A DNA stretch of 64,000 bases, from assembly GCA_964446625.1 (NCBI GenBank), contig CAYUPH010000002.1:69743-133742 (forward strand), read 5' to 3'. Shown piece by piece: positions 2,884 to 62,568 of the stretch. The notes under the pieces are model-generated. The model saw only the letters and a list, made by a program, of their open reading frames with translations. It searched no databases and was not told the DNA's origin. This DNA is from an uncultured Candidatus Saccharibacteria bacterium (GTDB taxonomy: Bacteria > Patescibacteriota > Minisyncoccia > Phycocordibacterales > CAIRYW01). Both the position numbers and the translations under genes were made by a program. Positions within the stretch are counted from its first letter, which is position 1. The number at the start of each line of letters is the position of its first letter.

Positions 2884-3587
2884 AAACTATGGAAAACCAA
2901 AACAGACATGTTGATTGGAGAAAATACCTTATTGCATTCCTTATAACAGGAGCAATTTTTGGTACCGCTCTCTATACAAATAATTATTTAAACAATAAAC
3001 GAATGTATGAGATAAAGCAGATTCAAGACGCAATCTCTATTAACATTCTATCTTCTGAAACAGAGTTCTCTCTTCTTTCAGATGTTACTTGTACTGATGG
3101 TAGCGATATTACCCTCGCTCACGAGCTAAACGAAATTGCTACTCGAATCTCATATGGTGAAAACAATATCAATTCAAATAAAGGAGAAATCGAAAATCTA
3201 AAGAAATACTACTCTCTCCTTCAAATCAAAGACTACCTCCTTTCAAAAAAAGTAGCCGAAAAGTGTAAGCAAAAAATGGTTATCGCGATGTACTTTTATG
3301 GAAACGGCTGTGACGAATGTATTAAACAAGGCTTTATTGTTGATGCACTTCGAAAAAAATACCCCGAACTAAAGATTTACTCTTTTGACGGAAGCCTTGG
3401 CCTTTCTGCACTATCTTCTTTTATGAAGACTCTAAAAGTAGATACTTACCCGACACTCATTATCGGAGGAAAGAAATACGGTCCTTTTACAACTCTTGAA
3501 GAGATGGAAAAAACCGTTCCCGAGATAAAGACTCTACAGACAGAACTAGAATCAAAAGAAAAAGCAGCTACCACAACAAAGAAATAG
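2874..3587 (+). CDS. thioredoxin-like fold membrane-anchored protein (CxxC)
   Basis: 237 aa with N-terminal TM; YGNGCDEC CxxC motif in a thioredoxin-like context; its start overlaps the upstream GT2 by 10 nt. Confidence 0.4.
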   Translation: MAIKTMENQNRHVDWRKYLIAFLITGAIFGTALYTNNYLNNKRMYEIKQIQDAISINILSSETEFSLLSDVTCTDGSDITLAHELNEIATRISYGENNINSNKGEIENLKKYYSLLQIKDYLLSKKVAEKCKQKMVIAMYFYGNGCDECIKQGFIVDALRKKYPELKIYSFDGSLGLSALSSFMKTLKVDTYPTLIIGGKKYGPFTTLEEMEKTVPEIKTLQTELESKEKAATTTKK

Positions 3588-3593
3588 CTAAAA

Positions 3594-3624
3594 CAAAAAC
3601 CTCCCACAAGGGAGGTTTTTGTTT
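3594..3624. terminator. palindromic bidirectional rho-independent terminator AAAAACCTCCC-ACAA-GGGAGGTTTTT
   Basis: Perfect hairpin flanked by an A-run and a T-run, lying between convergent genes ending at 3587 (+) and 3648 (-). Confidence 0.6.
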
Positions 3625-3647
3625 TAGCTAAGAGGTCTCTATGTTTA

Positions 3648-5129
3648 TTAATATTCATAAATGAAAGAGTTTCCCCACCCTTTTGAACATTCGTAGACTT
3701 TTTTGAAATTGCTATTTAAATCTTCATTAATCTTCTGATTTGTCATGTCGTAGTTCGCAAAGAATATATATACCTTCCTGTCGCCGTAAGTACCACTTAA
3801 AACATTTTTAAATATTGTTAGGTCCCATGGGTCCGGGTACAGACGCACTTCTTTTTGGGTGTAATAATGAACAATTGGTAATTGATTGGTTATTATAAGA
3901 GAATTTTTATCAATTGATTCGTCTCCTAAAAATTTATTTCCTTCAGAGAAACACAGATTTCCCCCTGAGACGGAATTTTGATACTCGGTTTTAAACATAC
4001 TCCAAAGCGACACTATCAAAATAGCGCATAATAGTCCAAAGATAATTTTTTTAAACTTTCCAAGCTTACTCATAAAAAAACCAGTAAGAATACACATAGC
4101 CGGGACAATGGGCATAATAAATCTTTCTTCCTTATGAGGCATATACATTAGCATAAGATAAAAGAAAATTATCCAAGTTAAAAGAAAATAAATTTCTTTT
4201 TTAAGAAACTCTTTTTTTATAAAAATAAAAAGTAAAGAAAATAAGAAAAATATTCCAAGGGCAGAAAAGATTTGCCATGAATTTATAAAAAAGAAGTTCC
4301 ATGACTGCACCCCTCCCCAATAACCTGCCGCCTTAAAACCGTGTAGAAATGCTCCAAATATATTGCCATAATATTTTAAACCATATATAAACCACGGAAG
4401 TAATGTCAAAAGAAAAGCTCCTACTGCAAGCCATAGATATTTGTCTTTCAAGAACTTTAATGACTTATCTCTAATAAGGAAATAAAATAGAAATATAGGA
4501 ATTATCCATAACGTTGTATAGCGTGCGTACAGCGACAATGCTAGAAATAATCCAAACAAAACCTTGTGTTTCTTCTTTTCTTTTTCATACCCCTCCCAAA
4601 AACTAATAAAAGTGAGTAGTAAAAAGAAAACAACAAGAGGATCGGTCCAGATCTTTCCGCTGTACAACACATGAATTGGTACTAATGAAAACAAAATTGC
4701 TGAAGATAATCCTATTTTTTTATTAAATAGTTTTTTTCCAAAAACATACACCAAAAGTACACTGGCAGTACCAAAAAAAGGAATAATTAATTGGATTAGG
4801 AAATTTAATTTGAAAACATAAAAAATCGAAAGAATATAAGGTAAGAGAGGGGCACGAAATCCAATGTTTGGCCAGCCATAAACTACGTCTGAAGATGGTA
4901 TGAAGTCATTCCACTTACTATTTTGCAAAGAATAAAATAAAGGATATCTACTTAAATCATGACCTAAATTCAAATAGACAGTTTCGTCCCATCCACGCAG
5001 GGGCGAATAAAGCGTAAATCCAATTCTTAGTAGAAATGAAAAAGCTAATACTAAAACGACTAACCTGTCCGTCCTATCAATTGCCAAAATCTTTTGCTTT
5101 ATACCTTTAATCATTTCTGAAAAGTCCAT
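3648..5129 (-). CDS. GT39/GT83-family membrane glycosyltransferase (ArnT / PMT-like), uses polyprenyl-phosphate sugar
   Basis: 493 aa with about 12 predicted TM helices, an aromatic-rich YARYTTLWIIPIFLFYF segment, and a downstream partner GT2-GtrA gene overlapping by 19 nt. Confidence 0.55.
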   Translation of the reverse strand: MDFSEMIKGIKQKILAIDRTDRLVVLVLAFSFLLRIGFTLYSPLRGWDETVYLNLGHDLSRYPLFYSLQNSKWNDFIPSSDVVYGWPNIGFRAPLLPYILSIFYVFKLNFLIQLIIPFFGTASVLLVYVFGKKLFNKKIGLSSAILFSLVPIHVLYSGKIWTDPLVVFFLLLTFISFWEGYEKEKKKHKVLFGLFLALSLYARYTTLWIIPIFLFYFLIRDKSLKFLKDKYLWLAVGAFLLTLLPWFIYGLKYYGNIFGAFLHGFKAAGYWGGVQSWNFFFINSWQIFSALGIFFLFSLLFIFIKKEFLKKEIYFLLTWIIFFYLMLMYMPHKEERFIMPIVPAMCILTGFFMSKLGKFKKIIFGLLCAILIVSLWSMFKTEYQNSVSGGNLCFSEGNKFLGDESIDKNSLIITNQLPIVHYYTQKEVRLYPDPWDLTIFKNVLSGTYGDRKVYIFFANYDMTNQKINEDLNSNFKKVYECSKGWGNSFIYEY

Positions 5130-14190: not shown

Positions 14191-15180
14191 CTACTTCCTC
14201 CCTAAAACCTTAGTGATTGCTCTAAGAATCGCTTTTTCTCCCAAATTGTAATACTCAATTAGTTCTTCTGGCGTACCAGATTGACCAAAAAGATTAGAAA
14301 CTCCTACAAATTCAATAGGCATAGGGTGGTTTTCTGCCAAACACTCAGCGATTGCACTCCCAAGCCCTCCCGCTTTTTGGTGCTCCTCAACAGTTACCAC
14401 AGCACCCGCCCGCTTTGCTTCTTCTACAACAGTTTTTATATCAAGAGGTTTTATAGTGTGCACATTTATGACCGACACCTGTCTTCCATTTTGTCTCAAA
14501 TTTTCTGCAACAAGGAGCGCTTTTGAAACAAGTGCTCCTGTCGCAAAGATTGCCACTTCAGGTTTTTCAGCTGTAAACAAAACTTCTGCTTTACCAATTT
14601 TAAAATGTGAATCCTCTGTTGTAATTACTGGAGTTTTTTCTCGAGCAAGGCGGATATAAACTGGCGACGAAACTTCTGAAGAAAGCGCAGCAAGAGTTGC
14701 CTTTTTTGCTTCAATCGCATCACATGGAGAAATGACTATCATATTTGGAAGAACGCGCATGAGTGCAATATCTTCGAGAGCTTGGTGCGTACCACCGTCT
14801 GGTCCTACAGAAACTCCGGCGTGGCTTCCTGCAATAACAACTTTCCTATCGTTGTAACAAATTGTGGTGCGAATCTGTTCCCAGTTTCTACCTGGAGAAA
14901 ACATTGCATACGAAGAGATAACAGGAAGCTTTCCCATTGCTGACATGCCACTTGCAACCGAAGCAAGGTTTTGTTCTGCGACACCCATTTCAACAAAACG
15001 CTCCGGAAACTTTTTCTTAAAAAGGTGCATCTGCGTTGATTCAGTGAGGTCGGCGCATAGTGCAACAATTGAAGCGTCTTTTTCTCCTGCAATAACTAAA
15101 CCTTCTCCAAGTCCTTTTCGAATTGGCACTTGCTCACACTCTGGTGAAAAAAGTTTTTTGTTTAAATGATTTTGGAGCAT
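14191..15180 (-). CDS. tktB: transketolase, C-terminal subunit (pyrimidine-binding plus C-terminal domain)
   Basis: 329 aa matching the Pyr-binding half of TK (EQNLASVASGMS, GSHAGVSVGPDGGTHQALEDIALMR). Confidence 0.8.
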   Translation of the reverse strand: MLQNHLNKKLFSPECEQVPIRKGLGEGLVIAGEKDASIVALCADLTESTQMHLFKKKFPERFVEMGVAEQNLASVASGMSAMGKLPVISSYAMFSPGRNWEQIRTTICYNDRKVVIAGSHAGVSVGPDGGTHQALEDIALMRVLPNMIVISPCDAIEAKKATLAALSSEVSSPVYIRLAREKTPVITTEDSHFKIGKAEVLFTAEKPEVAIFATGALVSKALLVAENLRQNGRQVSVINVHTIKPLDIKTVVEEAKRAGAVVTVEEHQKAGGLGSAIAECLAENHPMPIEFVGVSNLFGQSGTPEELIEYYNLGEKAILRAITKVLGRK

Positions 15181-15997: not shown

Positions 15998-16867
15998 CTA
16001 CTCGTGCTCGCTTTTTATTTCTCCGCCCCAGTTTCTTAGTTCCTTTAGCGCAAGGAGTGCCTCTTCTTTTGTAGGCGCTTTGCCATGCCATTCGTATTTT
16101 CTTTCAAATGCTTTTACACCTTTTCCTGGAATTGTGTGCGCAATTATAACGGACGGCATTTCAAAGACACTCTGCGCTTCGCCAAGTGCTCGTACTATAT
16201 CGCGAAAATCATGGCCGTTTATTTCTTCTACATGGAAATTAAACGCTTTTAGCTTATCTGCTAAAGGGTTAAGAGGCATTACATCTTCTGTAAAGCCATC
16301 TATTTGAATATTGTTTCTGTCAATAATCACAGTTAGGTTTTGGAGTTTCTCTTTTCCTGCAAGCATAAAAGCCTCCCAGTTTTGTCCCTCGTCGAGCTCA
16401 CCGTCTCCTAGGAGACAATAAAACTGCTTAGAAGAGTTTTTTCCATTGTCGATTCTGTCAGCAAGCGCCATACCAACAGCTTGAGAAAGTCCGCTTCCGA
16501 GTGGCCCTGACGAAGTTTCGACAATAGGCAGAAACTCTCTGTGTGGGTGCCCTTGAAGCTTTGAACCGAATTTACGCAGAGTCTTAAGCTCAGAAAGCCT
16601 CAGTGCGCCTGTGTGTGCAAGCGTCGCATAGTAAACAGGACAAATATGTCCATTAGACAGGACTAGCCGGTCCCTATCTTCCTTGCTCGGATTTTTTGGA
16701 TCAAAATTGAGCACATGAAAATACAGAGCAGTAAAAACATCTGTCATACCAAGAGGTCCTGCAGTGTGTCCACTTCCAGCTTCAGAAAGCATCTCAACAA
16801 TAGACTCACGAATTGCGCGCGCTTTTTCTTCTAAAAATTTTACTTTTTCTTCACTTAGAGGAAGCAT
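15998..16867 (-). CDS. tktA: transketolase, N-terminal subunit (TPP-binding)
   Basis: 289 aa with GHTAGPLGM and GDGELDEGQNWEA TPP-binding motifs. Confidence 0.8.
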   Translation of the reverse strand: MLPLSEEKVKFLEEKARAIRESIVEMLSEAGSGHTAGPLGMTDVFTALYFHVLNFDPKNPSKEDRDRLVLSNGHICPVYYATLAHTGALRLSELKTLRKFGSKLQGHPHREFLPIVETSSGPLGSGLSQAVGMALADRIDNGKNSSKQFYCLLGDGELDEGQNWEAFMLAGKEKLQNLTVIIDRNNIQIDGFTEDVMPLNPLADKLKAFNFHVEEINGHDFRDIVRALGEAQSVFEMPSVIIAHTIPGKGVKAFERKYEWHGKAPTKEEALLALKELRNWGGEIKSEHE

Positions 16868-18022: not shown

Positions 18023-18026
18023 AGAA

Positions 18027-18776
18027 TTAGCTTTTTGTAACCTCAAACTTTACACCATTTGAGCCTACACCAGTATTAATTTCGTATACCCCCGGTACCA
18101 CTTTGCTATATTCTTTGCAATTAAAATTCTCAAGAGAACTGCATAATTTATCTTTAACTGTTATTCGTAACCAATTTGAAGATGAGTCTTTGCCACTTTC
18201 TATTTTTTCAAGAACAAAATACACTTTACCTGCTTTATCCTTTAATTGAACAACAGGAACTCCATCAAATTCAGTATTTGTAATGTTACTACCTCTTATC
18301 TCTACTACAGTACCGACAGGACCAGAAGTTGGGTAGATTGATTCAATATATGTATCATGAGAGTTGTGATGCACAACACTATCAAACAATCTCTCAACTT
18401 CAACATTATCACTCTCGGTATATATTGTAATTCTTTGTGGATCATTTCCCACTGTATATCCTGACCAACATCTTTTTGCAGTAGCAATCGAGGAACAAGA
18501 ATGTTCTTTAAAAGAGGTGATAATTTTTATAACAGCATCATCATTCTCTGAAGAAGAAAGGATAGTTTCAGAAAAATCTTTTTTAGAAACATTATCAAGT
18601 GATTCCACCAGCTTCCAATCAGAAGGATAAGAGATTGTAGTGTATCCCCCCACATACTCTTTTGTAATCCATTCTATATTTTTCTCCTCATTAGATTGGT
18701 TAAAATAAAAAAAGTAAGCGCATATCAATAGTACAATTATTAGAATTGACCCCAAATAAAGATTTTTCTTTTTCAT
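18027..18776 (-). CDS. hypothetical membrane-anchored extracellular protein
   Basis: 249 aa with N-terminal TM and a beta-rich C-terminal part; no identifiable motif. Confidence 0.4.
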   Translation of the reverse strand: MKKKNLYLGSILIIVLLICAYFFYFNQSNEEKNIEWITKEYVGGYTTISYPSDWKLVESLDNVSKKDFSETILSSSENDDAVIKIITSFKEHSCSSIATAKRCWSGYTVGNDPQRITIYTESDNVEVERLFDSVVHHNSHDTYIESIYPTSGPVGTVVEIRGSNITNTEFDGVPVVQLKDKAGKVYFVLEKIESGKDSSSNWLRITVKDKLCSSLENFNCKEYSKVVPGVYEINTGVGSNGVKFEVTKS

Positions 18777-18791
18777 AACTCTTTTAAAAAA

Positions 18792-19901
18792 TTAAGTATA
18801 AGTAGGCGTAGCAGGAGCAGGAGAAACCTCTACCGCAGGAGGAACAGGATTTTCTGGAGATTTCATACTGCTTTTTGCTGCCTTTAGCGCATGCAGAACA
18901 AGCGAGTGAGTGTAGCCGATTTCATTGTCATACCACGCACACACTTTTCCTAGATTACTGTCTACAACTCGAGTGAGTGACAAATCAGCTATTGACGCAT
19001 ATACAGAACCAACAATATCAGAAGAAACAAGAGGTTCGTTTGTTACTGTAAAGACATCCTGCCACCTTTCGCTTTGAGATGCTTTTTGCAAAATACCGTT
19101 TATCTCCTCGGTGCTTGTAGGGCGTTTGAAAAGCATAGTAATGTCTGAAATTGACCCTGCAATCACAGGAACTCGCATTGAAATTCCATCGAACTTTCCT
19201 TTGAGTCGAGGCATTGCTTTTGTGACAGCGATTGCAGCTCCGGTAGAAGTAGGGACAATGTTTTGTGCTGCTGCCCTTCCTTCCTTCCAATCTTTTTTAC
19301 TTGGCGAATCTACAAGCGACTGCGAAGCTGTGTAGCCGTGAACTGTCGACAAAATTGCTTTCTCTACACCAATTGCCTCGTCCAAAATCGCAATAACTGG
19401 ACTCGATGCATTTGTTGTACAGCTAGCGTTTGATGTAATAGGTGAAGAACCAAATTCGTTTTCATTGAGCCCCATGAGGATTGTTGGAGTAACTACGCCT
19501 CCTTCTTCATCTTTTGCAGGCGCAGAAATCACAACATGTTTTGCACCAGCATCGAGGTGTGCTTTTGCTTTTTCGTAACTTGTAAAAAGCCCAGTTGATT
19601 CAATTACAATATCAATTTGAAGAGACGCCCACGGAAGACTCTTGGGGTCCTTCTCGCTAAAGTATAGAATTTCTTTTCCTCCAATTGTCAGAGATTTTTT
19701 GTCTGGTGCAGTCGAAACAGCGTATCCACTCTTTCCGTACGCACTGTCGTACTTCATAAGGTACGCAATATTTTCAATATCTGCCAAATCGTTTACAGCA
19801 ACAACTTCCATTTCTTTAAAACCTTGAGCGATTTTATAAAACGCTCGCCCGATTCGCCCTGCTCCGTTTATTGCAACTCTAATTTTTTGACTTCTGTCCA
19901 T
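18792..19901 (-). CDS. gap: glyceraldehyde-3-phosphate dehydrogenase with a Pro/Ala-rich C-terminal tail
   Basis: INGAGRIGR NAD motif and active-site ASCTTNASSPV; about 30 aa of extra C-terminal low-complexity sequence ENPVPPAVEVSPAPATPTYT. Confidence 0.85.
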   Translation of the reverse strand: MDRSQKIRVAINGAGRIGRAFYKIAQGFKEMEVVAVNDLADIENIAYLMKYDSAYGKSGYAVSTAPDKKSLTIGGKEILYFSEKDPKSLPWASLQIDIVIESTGLFTSYEKAKAHLDAGAKHVVISAPAKDEEGGVVTPTILMGLNENEFGSSPITSNASCTTNASSPVIAILDEAIGVEKAILSTVHGYTASQSLVDSPSKKDWKEGRAAAQNIVPTSTGAAIAVTKAMPRLKGKFDGISMRVPVIAGSISDITMLFKRPTSTEEINGILQKASQSERWQDVFTVTNEPLVSSDIVGSVYASIADLSLTRVVDSNLGKVCAWYDNEIGYTHSLVLHALKAAKSSMKSPENPVPPAVEVSPAPATPTYT

Positions 19902-20021
19902 TTGAGAATAATTCTATCATATTTCCCAAAAAAACTTTACAACTTTAGTGCTTCTGTTAGAGTGTTGGCAGTAGCCCTTTCAAATTCCTGAAACGGCGAA
20001 CTCATTCCAAAACCTACTCCA

Positions 20022-20615
20022 ATGATTCAACGCGCGTTACTATCCGTCTCCGACAAATCCGGCATCGTCGATTTTGCCCGAAGTCTGCATGAAATGAAAG
20101 TTGAGTTGCTGTCCACCGGCGGCACAGCCAAGACCCTCCGCGAAGCGGGACTGCCAGTTATCGAAGTCAGCGACTACACCGGCTTTCCTGAGTGCCTCGA
20201 CGGCCGGGTGAAGACGCTTCATCCGAAAATCCACGGCGGATTCCTCTACATCCGCGGGAATGCCGAGCACGAAGCCCAGGCCGCAAAGCATGGGATCGGC
20301 CCCATCGACCTGCTGGTGGTCAATCTTTACCCGTTCGAGCAGACCGTGGCCCGCGAAGGCGTGTCGTTCGAAGATGCCATCGAAAACATCGACATCGGCG
20401 GCCCGGCGATGCTCCGCGCTGCGGCGAAGAACCACGAATCCGTGACCATCGTCACTGATCCCGCCGACTACGAGACGGTGATCGAGGAAATGACCACCAA
20501 CGGCGGCGATACCACGCTTTCCACCCGGCGCCGGCTGGCCGTGAAGGTGTATCGCCGCACGTCGGAATACGACGCTGCGATAAGCGACTACTTGGAGGCG
20601 ACTTTCAAAGATTAA
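20022..20615 (+). CDS. purH: PurH N-terminal IMP-cyclohydrolase (MGS-like) domain only; high-GC, apparently foreign, truncated gene
   Basis: 197 aa collinear with the first ~200 residues of bacterial PurH ([91 protein letters not shown]) but lacking the AICAR-transformylase domain. GC content and third-position G/C codons are far above the flanking DNA. Confidence 0.75.
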
Positions 20616-20629
20616 ACTGCCCTCCTCCT

Positions 20630-20658
20630 GCAACAACCATAAGTTGTTGCTTTTTTTA
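20630..20658 (+). terminator. rho-independent terminator GCAACAAC-CATAA-GTTGTTGC followed by T7
   Basis: 8-bp perfect stem followed by TTTTTTTATT, 15 nt after the purH-fragment stop. Confidence 0.6.
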
Positions 20659-20667
20659 TTCCCAAAA

Positions 20668-22095
20668 CTAAGAAATAGCTGCAACAATCGCCTCTTTTGC
20701 GACCGCAGGGTTTATTGACCCTTTTCCTGCTTTCATAATTTGTCCAACTAGAAACATAAGAGCTGCTTCTTTTCCTCCTTTGTAGTCTTCTACCACACTT
20801 GGGTTTGCGACTAGAACTTCGTCTATTATCTTTTTGAGCGCTTCGGGATCATTTTTTAAAATCCATCCTTTTTCTTCTGCAATTTTTTCTGGGTCTTCAC
20901 CTCCTTCAGTAAAAAGAATTGCAAGAATATCCTTGGCTCCCCTGCTCGAAATCTTTCCAGAAGAGAGTAGGTTTATGAGTTCTCCAAATGAGCTTGGGAA
21001 AACTCCTCCTGTATCTGTTTTACCCGCATTTTTCATGAGTCCTAGAAGATCCGACACAATATAGTTTGCCGCAAGAGTCACACAGCTCTTATCGTTGCAA
21101 AAGTTTTCTATTGCTCTCTCAAAAAACACGCCGAGAGCACTGTTTTGAACAAATACTTCTATATCATCATTTTTTAGTCCGTATGTGTTTACATACCTCT
21201 GTCTCTTTTCTTCTGGGAGCTCGGGCATTTCTTTGCGAAGTGTTTCCTCTTTTAGTTCTGGAATTTCAGAGAGATAGAACTTTGGAATGTCTGGCTCTGG
21301 AAAGTATCTGTAGTCATGGGCATCTTCTTTTGATCTTTGGCTAAAAGTTTTTCCTGTTGATTCGTCAAAACCTCTTGTTTCTTGAACAATCTTTTCGCCG
21401 CTTTCTAAAACTTTTCGATGTCTTTCTATTTCAAACTCGATTGCTCTTTGTACTGATTTAAAGGAGTTAAGGTTTTTTACTTCTACTTTTGTTCCGAACT
21501 TTGTAGGGTCGCTACTTATTGAAATATTTGCCTCAACACGCATTTGTCCCTTTTCCATGTTTGCTTCACTTGCACCAAGATAGCGAAGAATGAGCTGAAG
21601 CTCTCGTGCAAAATCTCCTGCTGTTTTTGCGTCGTGTATTACAGGCTCTGTTACAAGTTCCATAAGTGGAAGCGATGAACGATTGAAATCCACGAGCGAG
21701 TAATCTCCCGTGTCGTGGCTACTTTTTGCCGTGTCTTCCTCTAAGTGAATTCGAGTGAGCTCTACCCCTTTTATATTTCCTCCTGAAACAAGAGGGTATT
21801 TGTACTGACTAATTTGATACCCTTTTGGAATGTCGGGATAAAAGTAGTTTTTTCTATCAAACTCTGTAAAGTCAGCGAGCTTTCCACCAACCGCAAGGCC
21901 TACCATGAGAACTTTTTTTATAGCTTCAAAGTTTGGGTAAGGAAGGGTTCCCGGGTGACCCATACACACCGGACAGACATTTACATTAGGTTTTTCTTCG
22001 TCAGGGTCGTTCTTGCACCCACAAAACATCTTGCTTACCGTCTGAAGCTCTGCGTGGATTTCGAGACCAATGGTTGCAGTGTATTTGTTTTCCAT
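20668..22095 (-). CDS. gatB: aspartyl/glutamyl-tRNA amidotransferase subunit B
   Basis: MENKYTATIGLEIHAELQT and the rest align with GatB end to end; the start is set at the internal Met (22095) that aligns with the family, not the upstream in-frame extension. Confidence 0.85.
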   Translation of the reverse strand: MENKYTATIGLEIHAELQTVSKMFCGCKNDPDEEKPNVNVCPVCMGHPGTLPYPNFEAIKKVLMVGLAVGGKLADFTEFDRKNYFYPDIPKGYQISQYKYPLVSGGNIKGVELTRIHLEEDTAKSSHDTGDYSLVDFNRSSLPLMELVTEPVIHDAKTAGDFARELQLILRYLGASEANMEKGQMRVEANISISSDPTKFGTKVEVKNLNSFKSVQRAIEFEIERHRKVLESGEKIVQETRGFDESTGKTFSQRSKEDAHDYRYFPEPDIPKFYLSEIPELKEETLRKEMPELPEEKRQRYVNTYGLKNDDIEVFVQNSALGVFFERAIENFCNDKSCVTLAANYIVSDLLGLMKNAGKTDTGGVFPSSFGELINLLSSGKISSRGAKDILAILFTEGGEDPEKIAEEKGWILKNDPEALKKIIDEVLVANPSVVEDYKGGKEAALMFLVGQIMKAGKGSINPAVAKEAIVAAIS

Positions 22096-53231: not shown

Positions 53232-53260
53232 TTGACATAGTATTAACAATGTGATATGGT
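53232..53260 (+). promoter_or_regulatory. sigma70-like promoter TTGACA-17 nt-TATGGT
   Basis: Consensus -35 TTGACA at 53232-53237, 17-nt spacer and a -10-like TATGGT, at the end of a 215-bp AT-rich intergenic tract upstream of the orphan ORF. Confidence 0.4.
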
Positions 53261-53288
53261 TCTGAACGGCAATTCCGCCTCTTTAAAA

Positions 53289-53900
53289 ATGAATAATCTG
53301 GAAAACTTCCTCCGGGCCGCCGGAGATCTGAACCAAAACAACCCTCTTGCAAGCAGTGCTCGCGCACAGACCTGGACTCAACTCTTCCTGCCAGCAGCTA
53401 AGATCCTGGAAGGAGAAAATCCCAGCCGGGTAGGTGCAGTCTTACAAGCAAGTTTTTTTAACTACGAAGATGGTCTGAAGTCTGTCGTTCACGTGTCTTT
53501 AGGAAGGCCCAGCTTGAAAAACTTTGCGTTCGCCAGCGAAAAAGCATGGCGACTCTGCACAAACCAAACTCACCGCTTTGCTTCACAAAGCGCTAATCCT
53601 TTAAGGCCCACCTATGATGATCTGAGCTTTGACGACCTAAAGGCGGTGAAATTTGCTGGTGCAGTCAGGTTTGATTTACCGAAGGATGAGACGGTCATCT
53701 TATCAGTCTCGGGACTTCCTCCTCAAGTTGATGAAGTTTGTGCCTTCCTGTTCGGGAAACTTTTTTTTCCAGAGTTTGGTCCTCGTCCTAGATCGGACTA
53801 CTGGGGAGAAATGCTCTTCCGTGGTGCATCTAGCTTGTTCAACAGATTTTACGCTTCTCATCTTGATTGGTTTGACCCCAATCATACATGGAGTGCGTAA
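53289..53900 (+). CDS. orphan hypothetical protein (GC-shifted)
   Basis: The ORF is open from 53256. The start is placed at MNNLENFL (53289), downstream of the predicted -10. It is Ala/Ser/Phe-rich with no recognisable motif, and its GC content and codon usage are visibly higher than the surroundings. Confidence 0.4.
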   Translation: MNNLENFLRAAGDLNQNNPLASSARAQTWTQLFLPAAKILEGENPSRVGAVLQASFFNYEDGLKSVVHVSLGRPSLKNFAFASEKAWRLCTNQTHRFASQSANPLRPTYDDLSFDDLKAVKFAGAVRFDLPKDETVILSVSGLPPQVDEVCAFLFGKLFFPEFGPRPRSDYWGEMLFRGASSLFNRFYASHLDWFDPNHTWSA

Positions 53901-54253: not shown

Positions 54254-55018
54254 TTAAAAATTATAATCAACATCAATACTTATAAAACCATTTTTTCCAA
54301 TTATAACATGATCAAGGAGGTCAATTCCCATAATCTTACCGCACTCAATGATCTGCTTTGTTATTTCAACATCTGCTTTACTTGGCTTCAAAACTCCGGA
54401 AGGGTGATTGTGCGCCAAGATAACAGCAACTGCTCCACACTCAAGCGCTGGACGAAAAACTTCCCTTGGGTGAACTATATTTGAATCCACTGTACCAATA
54501 GAAATCACTTCATCGCGTACTACCATGTGATGATTGTTGAGATAAATTCCCCTAAGATGTTCCTTTGACAGACTTCTCATGTCAGAGAGGTACTCGTAGA
54601 CATCATCTGCGGTTCGAATCGTTTCTCCTCTTCCCTTTTCTTTAAAAAAGCGTCGCCCTAGCTCTCCTGCAGCAACTACTTGCAGAGCTTTTACTATTGG
54701 AATTTTTAGCTCCGCGGAAAGCGCATTTGCATCCTTATGATTCACAAGAGCCTTTTGGCCATAGTTTCTAATAATCCTACCTGCCATTTCTAAAACTCCT
54801 TCCTTTTTTGTTCCGCTTGAAAGTACAATAGCAAGAAGCTCTTCGGTAGAGAGTACATCAGCGCCATGTGCGAGAAGTTTTTCTCGTGGTTTTTCATCCT
54901 CGGGTAAATCTCGAATTTTGAGAATATACCTACGAGGAGACTGTCTCAAGCGGAGACTAATCTCTGGCGTATCGTCAGTAATAAAATCATGATTTTTGAT
55001 TAAATACTTTGCCGGCAT
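54254..55018 (-). CDS. radC: RadC-family JAB/MPN-domain protein
   Basis: C-terminal JAMM motif ILAHNHPSG...D...T and N-terminal helix-hairpin-helix region. Confidence 0.8.
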   Translation of the reverse strand: MPAKYLIKNHDFITDDTPEISLRLRQSPRRYILKIRDLPEDEKPREKLLAHGADVLSTEELLAIVLSSGTKKEGVLEMAGRIIRNYGQKALVNHKDANALSAELKIPIVKALQVVAAGELGRRFFKEKGRGETIRTADDVYEYLSDMRSLSKEHLRGIYLNNHHMVVRDEVISIGTVDSNIVHPREVFRPALECGAVAVILAHNHPSGVLKPSKADVEITKQIIECGKIMGIDLLDHVIIGKNGFISIDVDYNF

Positions 55019-60104: not shown

Positions 60105-62051
60105 CTACTTAATATCAAGAATACGCCTCAAAACTTCCTCTGGAACTTCTTTGTGCGGTGCACTTTTCTCCCCCTCTACCACCTTTTTCTCTTCTACTAT
60201 CTTTTCTTCTGGCGCTTCAACCTTCTCCTTTATGTGCACTTTCTCTTCATATGAAATTTTTACTTCCTCTTTTGCTGGCTCAATTTTTGGAGTTTCTCCC
60301 TCTCTTTTTTCCTCATCTTTCAGAGGGGTACCCGTAATCATTGCAAGAGCTTCTCTAAGACCTGAGAGATGTTCTTCTGTCGGAGCTTTTTTGTCTTTTG
60401 TGTCTTGTAGTTTTCCTGTTTGTCTAAGATAACTAAGGGACACAGCTCTTCGTAGAGCTTTCTCTCTTTCATTTGCTGCTTCCTTTTTACCGAGGGGCGC
60501 TTGTGTTTGCTGTAGCGCATTTGAAACACTGTGGGTCGTTACTTTGGAATGTGCAACAATTTTTGTTGGGTTTGGGTAGTTCCCTTCTCTATGTACTTCA
60601 CCTTGGTGTACTCTGGGCGCAGAAAACTCCCTTCCTCCTCCACTATTTTGTTTCGGAGGAGTATGATTTCTGTCACCCGAAAGAACAGCTTGAAGCGCGA
60701 GGTCAATTGGACTTTTTTTACTATCTCTCTTTGTTTCTGCTACGGAAAATGATTGTTCCTCATGCCACCTCCTAATCGCATCCTCAACTTCCGCACGAGG
60801 GCGTGCAAATGTGTCTCGAGAATACTGCACCACATCTTCGTGGAAAATTTTTGGTGGAAGAGGCACAGGTGGAAGCGTTGTTGCGGAAAAAGGCCTCGAG
60901 CTCACTCCGTCAATCATGAGCTTGAGATATACCTGTGCAAAACCAAGATTTACCAAGTCCTCTGCTGTGAAGTTCGGCGCAAATTCTTTTTCGAGAACCT
61001 CTGCATCATAAGCCCCTACTCGAAAAGTAATCATAGTCCCCACGTTTCCAAAAACCGCAGCACGCACTTCTTCTGTCATTTGCTCAATATACTGGTGCGC
61101 AACAGTAAGATTTAATTTGTACTTTCGGGCTTCGGAGAGAATATCCGCAAAGCTCTCGTTCGCAAAGTTTTGAAACTCGTCCACAAAAAGATAGAAGTTC
61201 GGCAAAAGTTTTAGCTCCTCATCTCTCTTATCCGCACGACTCATCGCTGCAAGGTATATTTTTGTAATAAGCATTCCTCCAAGAAGGTTTGCATTTGCCT
61301 CACCTACCCTTCCTTTTGAGAGGTTAATGATAAGAATTTTCCCCTCGTCCATTATCTTTCGGATATCAAAAGTAGACTTTGGCTGACCTATAATATTTCG
61401 AATAAGAGGGTTTGAAATAAATTGTCCAATCTTGTTTTGAATCGCAGCACCCGCTTCTTGCATGTAGTTCTTGCCATATTTTGCAAACTCGTCTAGCCAA
61501 AAACTTTTTACAGCAGGGTCTGTCACATACTCAATCACTTTGTTGCGGTACGCTTCGTCCGCAAGCATTCTGTTTACCCCAATAATTGTTGACTCTGGGT
61601 ACTCGAGAAGAGCAAGAAGAATGTTGTTTAGAATATATTCCATTCGAGCACTCCACGCATCCACCCAGATTTTCTTGAAAGCAGCCATAAGTCCGTTTGC
61701 AACAAGGTGCCTTTTATCTGCTCCTACATCCTCAAGCACATTAAAAGAAATCGGATAATCCAAATCAAAGGGAGCAAAGTAGAGAACATCCTTTACTCTT
61801 TCTTCAGGAATATAATCAAGAAGGAGGTCCGCAGTCTTTCCGTGGGGATCAATAAATGCAAGTCCATGACCATTTTGAATATCCTGAACTGCAAGATTCT
61901 CAAGAAGGGTAGATTTTCCCATTCCTGTTTTTCCAATTATGTACACATGCCTGCTTCTGTCTTTTGTTTTTATACCAAAACGAAGACACTTATTTCGAGC
62001 GTCAGTTTCCGCAAAATATATTACTTTTTCCGGATCCTCATGTACTGCCAT
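60105..62051 (-). CDS. TraD/VirD4-like type IV coupling-protein-family P-loop ATPase (TraG-D_C / DUF87-like) with an acidic-basic low-complexity C-terminal tail
   Basis: Walker A IIGKTGMGKST, Walker B LFVDEFQNF, and the overall AAA-like domain of conjugative coupling proteins. The start is set at MAVHEDPEK because the upstream extension is hydrophobic junk. The C-terminal 120 aa are E/K-rich. Confidence 0.5.
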   Translation of the reverse strand: MAVHEDPEKVIYFAETDARNKCLRFGIKTKDRSRHVYIIGKTGMGKSTLLENLAVQDIQNGHGLAFIDPHGKTADLLLDYIPEERVKDVLYFAPFDLDYPISFNVLEDVGADKRHLVANGLMAAFKKIWVDAWSARMEYILNNILLALLEYPESTIIGVNRMLADEAYRNKVIEYVTDPAVKSFWLDEFAKYGKNYMQEAGAAIQNKIGQFISNPLIRNIIGQPKSTFDIRKIMDEGKILIINLSKGRVGEANANLLGGMLITKIYLAAMSRADKRDEELKLLPNFYLFVDEFQNFANESFADILSEARKYKLNLTVAHQYIEQMTEEVRAAVFGNVGTMITFRVGAYDAEVLEKEFAPNFTAEDLVNLGFAQVYLKLMIDGVSSRPFSATTLPPVPLPPKIFHEDVVQYSRDTFARPRAEVEDAIRRWHEEQSFSVAETKRDSKKSPIDLALQAVLSGDRNHTPPKQNSGGGREFSAPRVHQGEVHREGNYPNPTKIVAHSKVTTHSVSNALQQTQAPLGKKEAANEREKALRRAVSLSYLRQTGKLQDTKDKKAPTEEHLSGLREALAMITGTPLKDEEKREGETPKIEPAKEEVKISYEEKVHIKEKVEAPEEKIVEEKKVVEGEKSAPHKEVPEEVLRRILDIK

Positions 62052-62127
62052 TTCATATAAGTATAAAGTAAAAAGACTAAAGTATAAAGGAGAGGAAATA
62101 AAAAAGTAGGGATGTTTCCCTACTATA

Positions 62128-62568
62128 TTAAGCCCTGGACTTAAGTCGAAAATGTCTCCTCGCGTCTTCTGTTGCCTTCTGCTGTTCAAGCCAATCAGCA
62201 ACTGCAAAGGATGGAGGATTATTCGCACCGAATATAAATTCAACAAATTGAGCATGTTCCATCATTCGCGCAGAAAGGGCAAATTCCATCATTTGAATTA
62301 TTGCCAAATCAGCATTTTCGTGAGAAGTAACAATGTTATTACACATTGCTCCAGTATGAGTAAGGCAAGTGTGCGCTGCCATTACCATAATACCCACAAT
62401 TCTTCCTTTTTCTCTTGCAGTTATGATCCTAGAGCGCTGCAAGATATCCGTTATGCTCAGGACATTATGTTCCCTCACCTGGCTATGGAGAAGCCGGAGC
62501 AAGTGATTGATTGTAGCTACGTCAGCAGGAGTTACCTCTTCCAAAAAACCGATCAAAAAAGAGCTCAT
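62128..62568 (-). CDS. hypothetical protein (weak GNAT-like features)
   Basis: 146 aa; REKGRIVG resembles the acetyl-CoA binding R/Q-x-x-G-x-G/A loop, but the match is weak. Confidence 0.3.
   Translation of the reverse strand: MSSFLIGFLEEVTPADVATINHLLRLLHSQVREHNVLSITDILQRSRIITAREKGRIVGIMVMAAHTCLTHTGAMCNNIVTSHENADLAIIQMMEFALSARMMEHAQFVEFIFGANNPPSFAVADWLEQQKATEDARRHFRLKSRA

Follow-up and report, generated by a model that had tools for sequence, protein, structure and literature searches.

The question raised by the stretch of DNA analysed here, 64,000 nucleotides of contig CAYUPH010000002.1 in assembly GCA_964446625.1 (hereafter the window), is why it carries a gene for only the first half of PurH, the bifunctional enzyme of late purine synthesis, and why that gene has a guanine-plus-cytosine (GC) content far above that of its surroundings. 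The open reading frame (ORF) in question was taken from the ORF list of the window; it begins with ATG, occupies positions 20022-20615 on the plus strand and encodes 197 amino acids (aa) corresponding to the inosine monophosphate (IMP) cyclohydrolase domain (IMPCH). An earlier reading made from the letters alone (the sequence-only reading) had taken it for a recently acquired foreign fragment or, alternatively, an assembly chimera. The gene is probably an intact IMPCH cassette, horizontally acquired from Verrucomicrobiota by a genome of the Parcubacteria/Paceibacterota, most likely expressed and coding for an enzyme of the stand-alone purJ type.

Two Pfam models match the ORF, namely MGS (PF02142) with 93.3 bits (cutoff 24.1) and AICARFT_IMPCHas, the latter in its first 59 columns. 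The purH equivalogs of NCBIfam (TIGR00355 and NF002049) match in model positions 2-196 of about 510 with scores of 302-303 bits, under the cutoffs of 528 and 402; a match so confined, together with the sub-cutoff scores, means that only the IMPCH domain is encoded. The ORF corresponds to PurH residues 1-196, a complete IMPCH domain, and its end falls in the inter-domain linker; homology to the formyltransferase domain (AICARFT) acting on 5-aminoimidazole-4-carboxamide ribonucleotide (AICAR) was not detected anywhere in the window, and the stop codon is followed by gatB after only 52 nt. Alignments to Protein Data Bank (PDB) entries run end to end with the IMPCH domain (residues 1-193 of 9ou7 and 6-196 of 1g8m), and the N-terminal domains of solved PurH/ATIC structures match at E = 4e-67 to 1e-57. 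Because the identity to the solved PurH N-domains amounts to 55-60%, the fold of the product is regarded as settled. All conserved motifs, including AAKNH, are intact in the alignment to 1g8m and 9ou7, and the PDB alignment shows equivalents of human K66, Y104, D125 and K137, which we take from the structural literature on ATIC to have catalytic roles. The sequence-only reading had described the ORF as collinear with the N-terminal ~200 residues of PurH and as stopping where the transformylase domain would begin, and in both respects it agrees with the domain models and structures; the stop-free frame that it saw on the opposite strand is likewise present (20040-20687).

The GC content of the ORF is 0.593 compared with 0.38 on either flank, so that the earlier estimate of about 60% within about 38% surroundings was borne out. 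The GC content at third codon positions (GC3) is 0.751, whereas the host mean is 0.305 +/- 0.044 (n = 56 other ORFs of the window; z = 10.2), and an index resembling the codon adaptation index (CAI), built from the host ORFs, gives 0.40 versus 0.69 +/- 0.035 (z = -8.4). No other strong GC island occurs in the 64 kb, and the one further island, at 53293-53616, is weak. The strong rise in GC sets in with the start codon and lasts until about 14 nt 3' of the stop codon, and not, as had been stated, from some 60 bp upstream to the stop codon; the leader (19961-20021) is mildly GC-enriched (0.46).

A compositional step as sharp as this at the gene borders would be expected from an assembly chimera or a binning contaminant, an explanation which is next to impossible for the present locus. 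The identical protein was found on nine contigs, which come from separate assemblies in ENA, Logan and NCBI. Of these, three were fetched (one of 60 kb from metaSPAdes, one of 15 kb from Logan and one of 791 nt) and match the window at 99.99-100%; the 791-nt contig covers both low-GC/high-GC junctions. Contigs from ERZ17987007, SRR32414319 and ERZ17987222 have the same junctions, which are thus reproduced across different samples and assemblers, in independent ENA and Logan assemblies, including a strain variant (L002, the 15-kb Logan contig) that differs from the window by an unrelated 812-bp indel. Diverged alleles of like architecture occupy the same locus in two other lineages, a sister strain (L092) and the bearer of a third allele, and the leader and terminator beside the gene are host-like in composition.

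Regarding the host, all named close relatives of the ribosomal protein S2 of the window belong to Patescibacteria, Paceibacterota, Parcubacteria or Taylorbacteria, and the genome is assigned to the Parcubacteria/Paceibacterota within the candidate phyla radiation (CPR). The nearest S2 outside its own species is 65-67% identical, and the lineage is therefore poorly sampled. Related loci were collected in a metagenome scan with the GAPDH protein as query, which yielded 21 loci with a conserved obg-gatB-GAPDH-rpiB order. The site is empty in five of them (L097, L098, L099, L101 and L102), where 23-61 nt lie between the gatB stop and the GAPDH start; L097 is the sister of the window in the GAPDH tree (89% bootstrap). 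Since gatB and GAPDH are directly adjacent in the closest relatives, the IMPCH gene is an insertion, placed at a permissive operon boundary. The gene shows all three marks of a horizontal island: its composition is atypical, its phylogenetic affinity foreign, and its site empty in close relatives.

The gatB-GAPDH spacer of other Parcubacteria relatives holds unrelated inserts of 136-489 nt (L104, ~324-812, 489 nt; L112, ~3509-3986, 478 nt; L105, ~3857-3992, 136 nt), of which the 478-nt insert carries a small His-rich membrane ORF; the boundary seems to tolerate insertion repeatedly. Beside the GAPDH gene there is also a strain-variable indel: positions 18024-18835 are replaced by ~56 nt in Logan contig L002, which is otherwise 99.99% identical, with the GAPDH called as 376 aa. 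The ORF at 18027-18776 (minus strand, 249 aa) encodes a hypothetical secreted or membrane-anchored protein with no Pfam or NCBIfam match.

The donor was searched among 185,579 GTDB species genomes, in which the best matches were full-length PurH proteins (514-542 aa) of Verrucomicrobiales/Verrucomicrobiota with 73-76% identity, located on contigs of 59-64% GC. The best 120 matches of a first protein search contained no full-length PurH; a second one returned 515-aa PurH proteins with 77-78.5% identity (P0125 and others, obtained from this search only). The nearest of these, P0125, comes from sample ERZ27286916, which is not among the host samples. All trees were neighbour-joining (NJ) distance trees of 150-197 sites. 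In these, the window allele and P0002, the allele of the sister strain, stand at the base of a verrucomicrobial clade A with bootstrap values of 66-77% for all sites and 84% for the core only; Dayhoff-6 recoding does not alter the placement of the window allele. Stand-alone IMPCH genes of Leptospirales, Spirochaetota, Nitrospirota and Desulfarculaceae show 60-67% identity and branch elsewhere; the window allele groups within the full-length Verrucomicrobiales PurH and not with the stand-alone L027, L033, L063, L075 and P0003. Best matches and trees concur in placing the donor in the Verrucomicrobiota and not, as had been proposed, among Proteobacteria or Actinobacteria-like organisms. The more general claim of a foreign gene from a high-GC donor is upheld by the GC3 deviation and by the GC content of the contigs with the closest PurH; the GC3 of the verrucomicrobial donors (0.69-0.79) spans that of the window allele (0.75).

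One purH gene on a 0.6-GC verrucomicrobia-like contig (P0004; L095 3686-4366, also L096) has an in-frame TAG in the linker and a GTG restart 10 nt after it, and is split in this manner in two independent assemblies, which may represent a separation into purJ and purV in the making or a case of stop-codon read-through. Its 201-aa product was considered as a stand-alone verrucomicrobial gene and rejected, being a purH split by the in-frame TAG and restart; the verrucomicrobial clade B to which it belongs therefore holds a donor with an IMPCH-only first ORF.

Three alleles are known at this one locus. The sister strain is represented by L092, a 2-kb Logan contig, the GAPDH and gatB flanks of which are 96-97% identical to the window (synonymous divergence, dS, 0.175 and 0.176). 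Its IMPCH allele P0002 (726-1334, 202 aa) shows 77% protein and 75% DNA identity to that of the window, with a dS of ~1.2 overall, 0.70 in codons 1-100 and saturation in codons 151-197; the allele is thus ~7-fold more diverged than its flanks. The breakpoints are sharp, at 20001 and 20629, with the terminator as the right edge and the stop codon in the same column; at 20001/20002 the identity drops from 96-100% to unalignable. The GC3 of P0002 is 0.59, decreasing to 0.43 in the last third. P0002 also shows D11N in the otherwise invariant SVSDK, P104R in NLYPF and five additional N-terminal residues, and may be a mosaic or partly relaxed copy.

The third allele, on L100, occurs in a lineage whose GAPDH is 74% identical to that of the window and whose GAPDH sister L099 has an empty site. 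It encodes 196 aa, is 64% identical to the window allele, has the same position and orientation, and falls in GC from 0.55 to 0.44. In the trees it branches in the verrucomicrobial clade B (with P0004, P0164 and P0139) with core-region bootstraps of 88-96%, a placement which holds after Dayhoff-6 recoding, and it has the rare states G41, Q77, E79, V92 and S161 in common with P0004. Monophyly of the three CPR alleles was recovered in 0-1 of 50-100 bootstrap replicates. Polarised changes are biased from GC to AT, 16 versus 4 in the window and 24 versus 10 in L092. Amelioration alone was considered as the cause of the allele divergence and rejected: AT-biased mutation raises the rate at most ~1.7-fold in a rough two-state estimate, versus the 4-7-fold that is needed.

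Two readings of this history may be considered, a repeated verrucomicrobial overwriting of a resident cassette, or a single acquisition followed by spread and loss, with trees that mislead. Overwriting would explain the two-clade affinity, the 7-fold excess divergence with sharp breakpoints at the ORF edges, the near-donor GC and the common leader. In its widest form, in which the coding part of a cassette resident between gatB and GAPDH was repeatedly overwritten by DNA of different Verrucomicrobia and so records a lasting episymbiosis in physical contact with verrucomicrobial hosts, while the orphan enzyme makes IMP from FAICAR (the formylated form of AICAR) or AICAR-pathway intermediates of such a host in a cell that may have no purine synthesis itself, it would be an unlikely account. 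A single old acquisition by an ancestral Parcubacterium, with subsequent vertical descent, loss and cassette exchange, appears possible but on the doubtful side. It accords with the same locus, orientation, homologous leader and truncation point in all three alleles and with the GC-to-AT bias of the changes in the window and L092, and it treats the two-clade affinity as a long-branch or short-alignment artefact, which the method and length of the trees would permit. It has to contend, however, with the near-absence of CPR monophyly from the replicates, the affinities of L100 to clade B and of the window to clade A, the rare states common to L100 and P0004, a window GC3 that would be hard to retain through long residence in a genome of GC3 0.31, and a GAPDH tree that sets empty-site genomes as sisters of both occupied lineages. 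As to age, the window coding sequence would have arrived, or been overwritten, recently because its GC3 is near that of the donor, and the cassette itself would be older because leader and locus are common to relatives. The claim of a recent acquisition can thus be kept for the barely ameliorated window allele and not for the cassette, which is common to relatives and has had a more complicated history.

The cassette as a whole is a unit of 736 bp in the gatB-GAPDH spacer, the usual length of which is 20-60 nt, comprising the promoter-like site, a conserved leader, the ORF and a terminator (Table 1). The promoter-like element reported earlier is present, with a spacer of 16 and not 17 nt; L092, the sister strain, keeps the site but for two changes in the spacer. 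A leader element, TTCTGTTA-N10-AGTWGCCCTTTCAAAT, is shared with the distant allele L100, and no further copy was found in ~1 Mb of fetched loci, including the upstream regions of verrucomicrobial purH and the empty-site relatives. An origin of the leader by copying from elsewhere in the host was rejected, as neither the window nor the loci contain a second copy. The type of regulator expected upstream of purH is the ZTP riboswitch. A riboswitch or other known RNA in the leader was rejected, since an Rfam search matched no family even at E <= 5. The clean terminator described by the sequence-only reading was confirmed; it is conserved in L092, and in L100 an equivalent hairpin with a T-run, of different stem sequence, lies 3' of the gene.

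Two kinds of repeat occur near the cassette ends. In L097 and L099, two relatives with an empty site, a homologous TTTTGGGAA-like spacer sequence lies upstream of the GAPDH -10. Together with it, the 9-bp direct repeat would fit either duplication of a target or a junction formed by microhomology, the 9-mer alone being within chance. A 17-nt imperfect inverted repeat (76% complementary) at 19929-19945 and 20641-20657, on the inner side of the direct repeat, may represent the geometry of a miniature inverted-repeat transposable element (MITE), but consists mostly of A/T runs and the terminator stem and so may be due to chance. Direct (9-bp) and inverted (17-nt) repeats of such size are expected by chance in 1 kb, and no integrase or transposase gene accompanies the cassette.

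The following course of events is proposed. The first half of a PurH of verrucomicrobial origin would have entered the gatB-GAPDH spacer as the 736-bp unit; it would be expressed from its own promoter-like site, and transcription would end at its own terminator. The 197-aa protein would carry out the final step of purine synthesis, the cyclisation of FAICAR to IMP, and FAICAR would be supplied either by a separate AICAR formyltransferase encoded elsewhere in the genome or by intermediates from a partner cell.

Signs of purifying selection are seen in all three alleles. Across 198 other sequences, 53 positions are at least 97% conserved; the window allele keeps all of them, and P0002 and L100 each differ at one, where 7.7, 9.3 and 13.4 changes, respectively, would be expected if the genes were unconstrained (P <= 4e-4). 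For codons 1-150, comparison of the window allele with that of L092 gives a ratio of nonsynonymous to synonymous divergence (dN/dS) of 0.11. The segment that packs against the absent domain in PurH, the C-terminal ~45 residues, is fast-evolving; its identity is 0.51-0.56, whereas 70 full-length pairs matched for core identity all reach 0.63 or more. A spared core with a diverged tail would result from continued selection on the catalytic core once the partner domain had been lost, and the gene has apparently been kept. The assertion that a lone cyclohydrolase domain is biochemically useless is contradicted by the unfused purJ/PurH2 class, of which one member is active, and here the conserved residues are retained under apparent purifying selection.

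It is nevertheless conceivable that the gene is a neutral passenger, a recently captured and unused piece of purH that has not yet decayed and owes its intactness and low dN/dS to selection in the donor. A GC3 equal to that of the donors and almost unameliorated, an extremely poor codon adaptation, the absence of partner pur genes from the sequence searched, and the joining of the alleles to different verrucomicrobial clades, whereby part of their divergence may pre-date the transfer, would all fit such a passenger. This explanation is judged distinctly unlikely, as it does not account for open frames of 196-202 aa in all three alleles and lineages, ending within ~4 codons of one linker column, for the concentration of change in the former interface tail with the catalytic core spared, or for the conserved promoter, leader and terminator; in addition, L100, although more ameliorated (GC 0.55 to 0.44; terminal branch 0.29 substitutions per site), keeps 52 of the 53 conserved positions. 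Very unlikely is a re-purposing of the domain for another ribonucleotide-like substrate, as in ForH of formycin biosynthesis, or as a nucleotide-binding regulator. ForH (PDB 6nko, 216 aa, stand-alone) is a detectable homologue (E = 1e-28), the gene is an orphan in the sequence searched, and its C-terminal segment evolves fast; genuine PurH is, however, far closer (E = 4e-67, 75-78% identity), the retention of all near-invariant PurH positions argues against a new substrate, and the neighbours are genes of central carbon metabolism and translation, without secondary-metabolite genes.

An expressed purJ-type enzyme, which remains the preferred interpretation, has to be weighed against several observations. 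A search of the 64-kb window, the 10 kb past its left end and 218 kb of related CPR loci detected no FAICAR-producing enzyme and no other pur gene. The ORF has no evident Shine-Dalgarno sequence (the neighbouring host genes likewise lack one), the promoter-like site is a consensus match at chance level (two such sites were found in the region versus 0.9 expected), and the codon usage matches that of the host very poorly. The dN/dS and conserved-site signals would be partly inherited from verrucomicrobial donors if the alleles were acquired separately, and P0002 carries the above-mentioned D11N within the SVSDK motif. The closest donor found has 78.5% identity, so that composition is the sole basis for calling the arrival recent.

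Regarding the source of FAICAR, the genes of the window serve translation, the cell wall, envelope polysaccharides, glycolysis and the pentose-phosphate pathway. That no other purine-biosynthesis gene occurs in the window had been noted before, and extending the search by 10 kb beyond the left end did not alter this; tblastn with AICARFT and PurD against the window and 23 CPR loci gave no match. A co-transferred AICARFT half was considered and rejected: a protein search with the AICARFT domain of L013 returned only full-length or contig-truncated verrucomicrobial PurH and no purV in a low-GC or CPR context. Nucleotide synthesis is often said to be missing from CPR genomes (PMC5113843); it is nonetheless plausible that a purV is encoded at another place in this genome, because one survey scored the de novo purine module as complete in ~32% of CPR metagenome-assembled genomes (PMC11608272). 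In a 0.41-GC genome of free-living type (L007/L008, 6001-8773), a genuine IMPCH gene of the stand-alone kind, P0029, is found two genes upstream of purD; the gene in between encodes a protoglobin/PsiE-domain protein, and P0029 is thus a purJ in pur context.

Unfused IMPCH genes are a described class, purJ, usually found with purV, or with purP in Archaeoglobus, and 63% of the replacing genes, purJ included, lie outside pur context (PMC6486802). The unfused PurH2 of A. fulgidus (AF1811) is active, with a Michaelis constant (Km) for FAICAR of ~8 uM, and complements E. coli (PMC6797443). The window gene resembles this class in encoding an IMPCH-only protein of ~195-200 aa with the conserved motifs kept and, as is often the case for purJ, in lying outside a pur operon; it also ends in the same alignment column as the unfused genes of Leptospirales, Spirochaetota and Nitrospirota, an end column found for 13 stand-alone genes in GTDB genomes and likewise for P0003, P0029 and P0055. 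In contrast to the established stand-alone clades, it branches inside full-length verrucomicrobial PurH and would therefore have a separate origin, either through truncation or because the first half of a split purH was captured. With bifunctional PurH/ATIC (PDB 9ou7, 1g8m, 1pkx) it shares 196 collinear N-terminal residues at 55-78% identity, whereas the AICARFT domain of ~320 aa is entirely absent and the NCBIfam purH cutoffs are not reached. ForH is similarly a stand-alone protein of IMPCH fold and ~200 aa, but is much more distant, and the window gene does not lie in a biosynthetic cluster. Like other horizontally transferred genes of CPR/Patescibacteria, the window gene is an outlier in GC and codon usage, is phylogenetically incongruent, and is inserted between genes at a site that is empty in sister genomes; it differs from them in being a single domain-sized gene without mobility genes, found repeatedly at one locus in several lineages, where the leader is common and the coding sequences diverge strongly.

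Table 1. Features of the IMPCH cassette and its flanking genes (positions in the window)
Feature	Position	Strand	Basis or remark
Host GAPDH gene, left flank, divergent from the IMPCH gene	18792-19901	-	Pfam Gp_dh_N, Gp_dh_C; GC3 0.31
Left copy of 9-bp direct repeat TTCCCAAAA	19923-19931	.	Ancestral gatB-GAPDH spacer; perfect copies 736 bp apart
Putative sigma-70-like promoter TTTACA-16-TAGAGT, extended -10 TG	19936-19963	+	Consensus match; chance level for the region
Leader element TTCTGTTA-N10-AGTAGCCCTTTCAAAT, cassette-specific	19952-19985	+	Common to window, L092 and L100
Allele-specific stretch 5' of the start codon; left breakpoint of the divergent block	20002-20021	+	Window/L092 alignment
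IMPCH gene (PurH N-terminal/MGS-like), 197 aa, attributed to a verrucomicrobial origin	20022-20615	+	Domain, PDB alignment, trees, selection, composition
Predicted intrinsic terminator GCAACAAC-cataa-GTTGTTGC + T7; 8-bp stem, 5-nt loop	20630-20657	+	Folding free energy (dG) -10.3 kcal/mol, z = -4.46
Right copy of 9-bp direct repeat TTCCCAAAA, abutting the gatB stop codon	20659-20667	.	Repeat search
Host gatB gene, right flank, 475 aa in public assemblies; mechanical ORF to 22221	20668-22095	-	Pfam GatB_N, GatB_Yqey

Elsewhere in the window, a 214-aa ORF at 53256-53900 (plus strand) is the second compositional outlier, with a GC content above 0.5 at 53293-53616, a GC3 of 0.46 and a CAI-like index of 0.54. 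It has no Pfam or NCBIfam match, adjoins a RadC gene (54254-55018) and has a gene for a TraG/VirD4-like coupling protein (60105-62255) in its vicinity; this ORF, too, may be of foreign or mobile-element origin. The transketolase is split into an N-terminal gene (15998-16867) and a C-terminal gene (14191-15180), with MazG-like and DoxX genes between them.

Stand-alone IMPCH and gene transfer into CPR genomes are both already known, and the finding is not new in kind. What is unusual is the history of the locus, which combines a deep divergence of alleles between near-identical flanks with affinities to two donors and one common leader. If the genome truly has no source of FAICAR, the gene would point to an uptake of late purine intermediates from a host, which to our knowledge has not been described previously. 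The locus would offer a clean case of one catalytic domain of a bifunctional enzyme that moved across phyla and was then kept under selection, and it names Verrucomicrobiota as DNA donors, and possibly partners, of a sparsely sampled Parcubacteria lineage. With three alleles at one site, it may serve on a small scale as a natural experiment in how sequences ameliorate and alleles are replaced in ultra-small bacteria.

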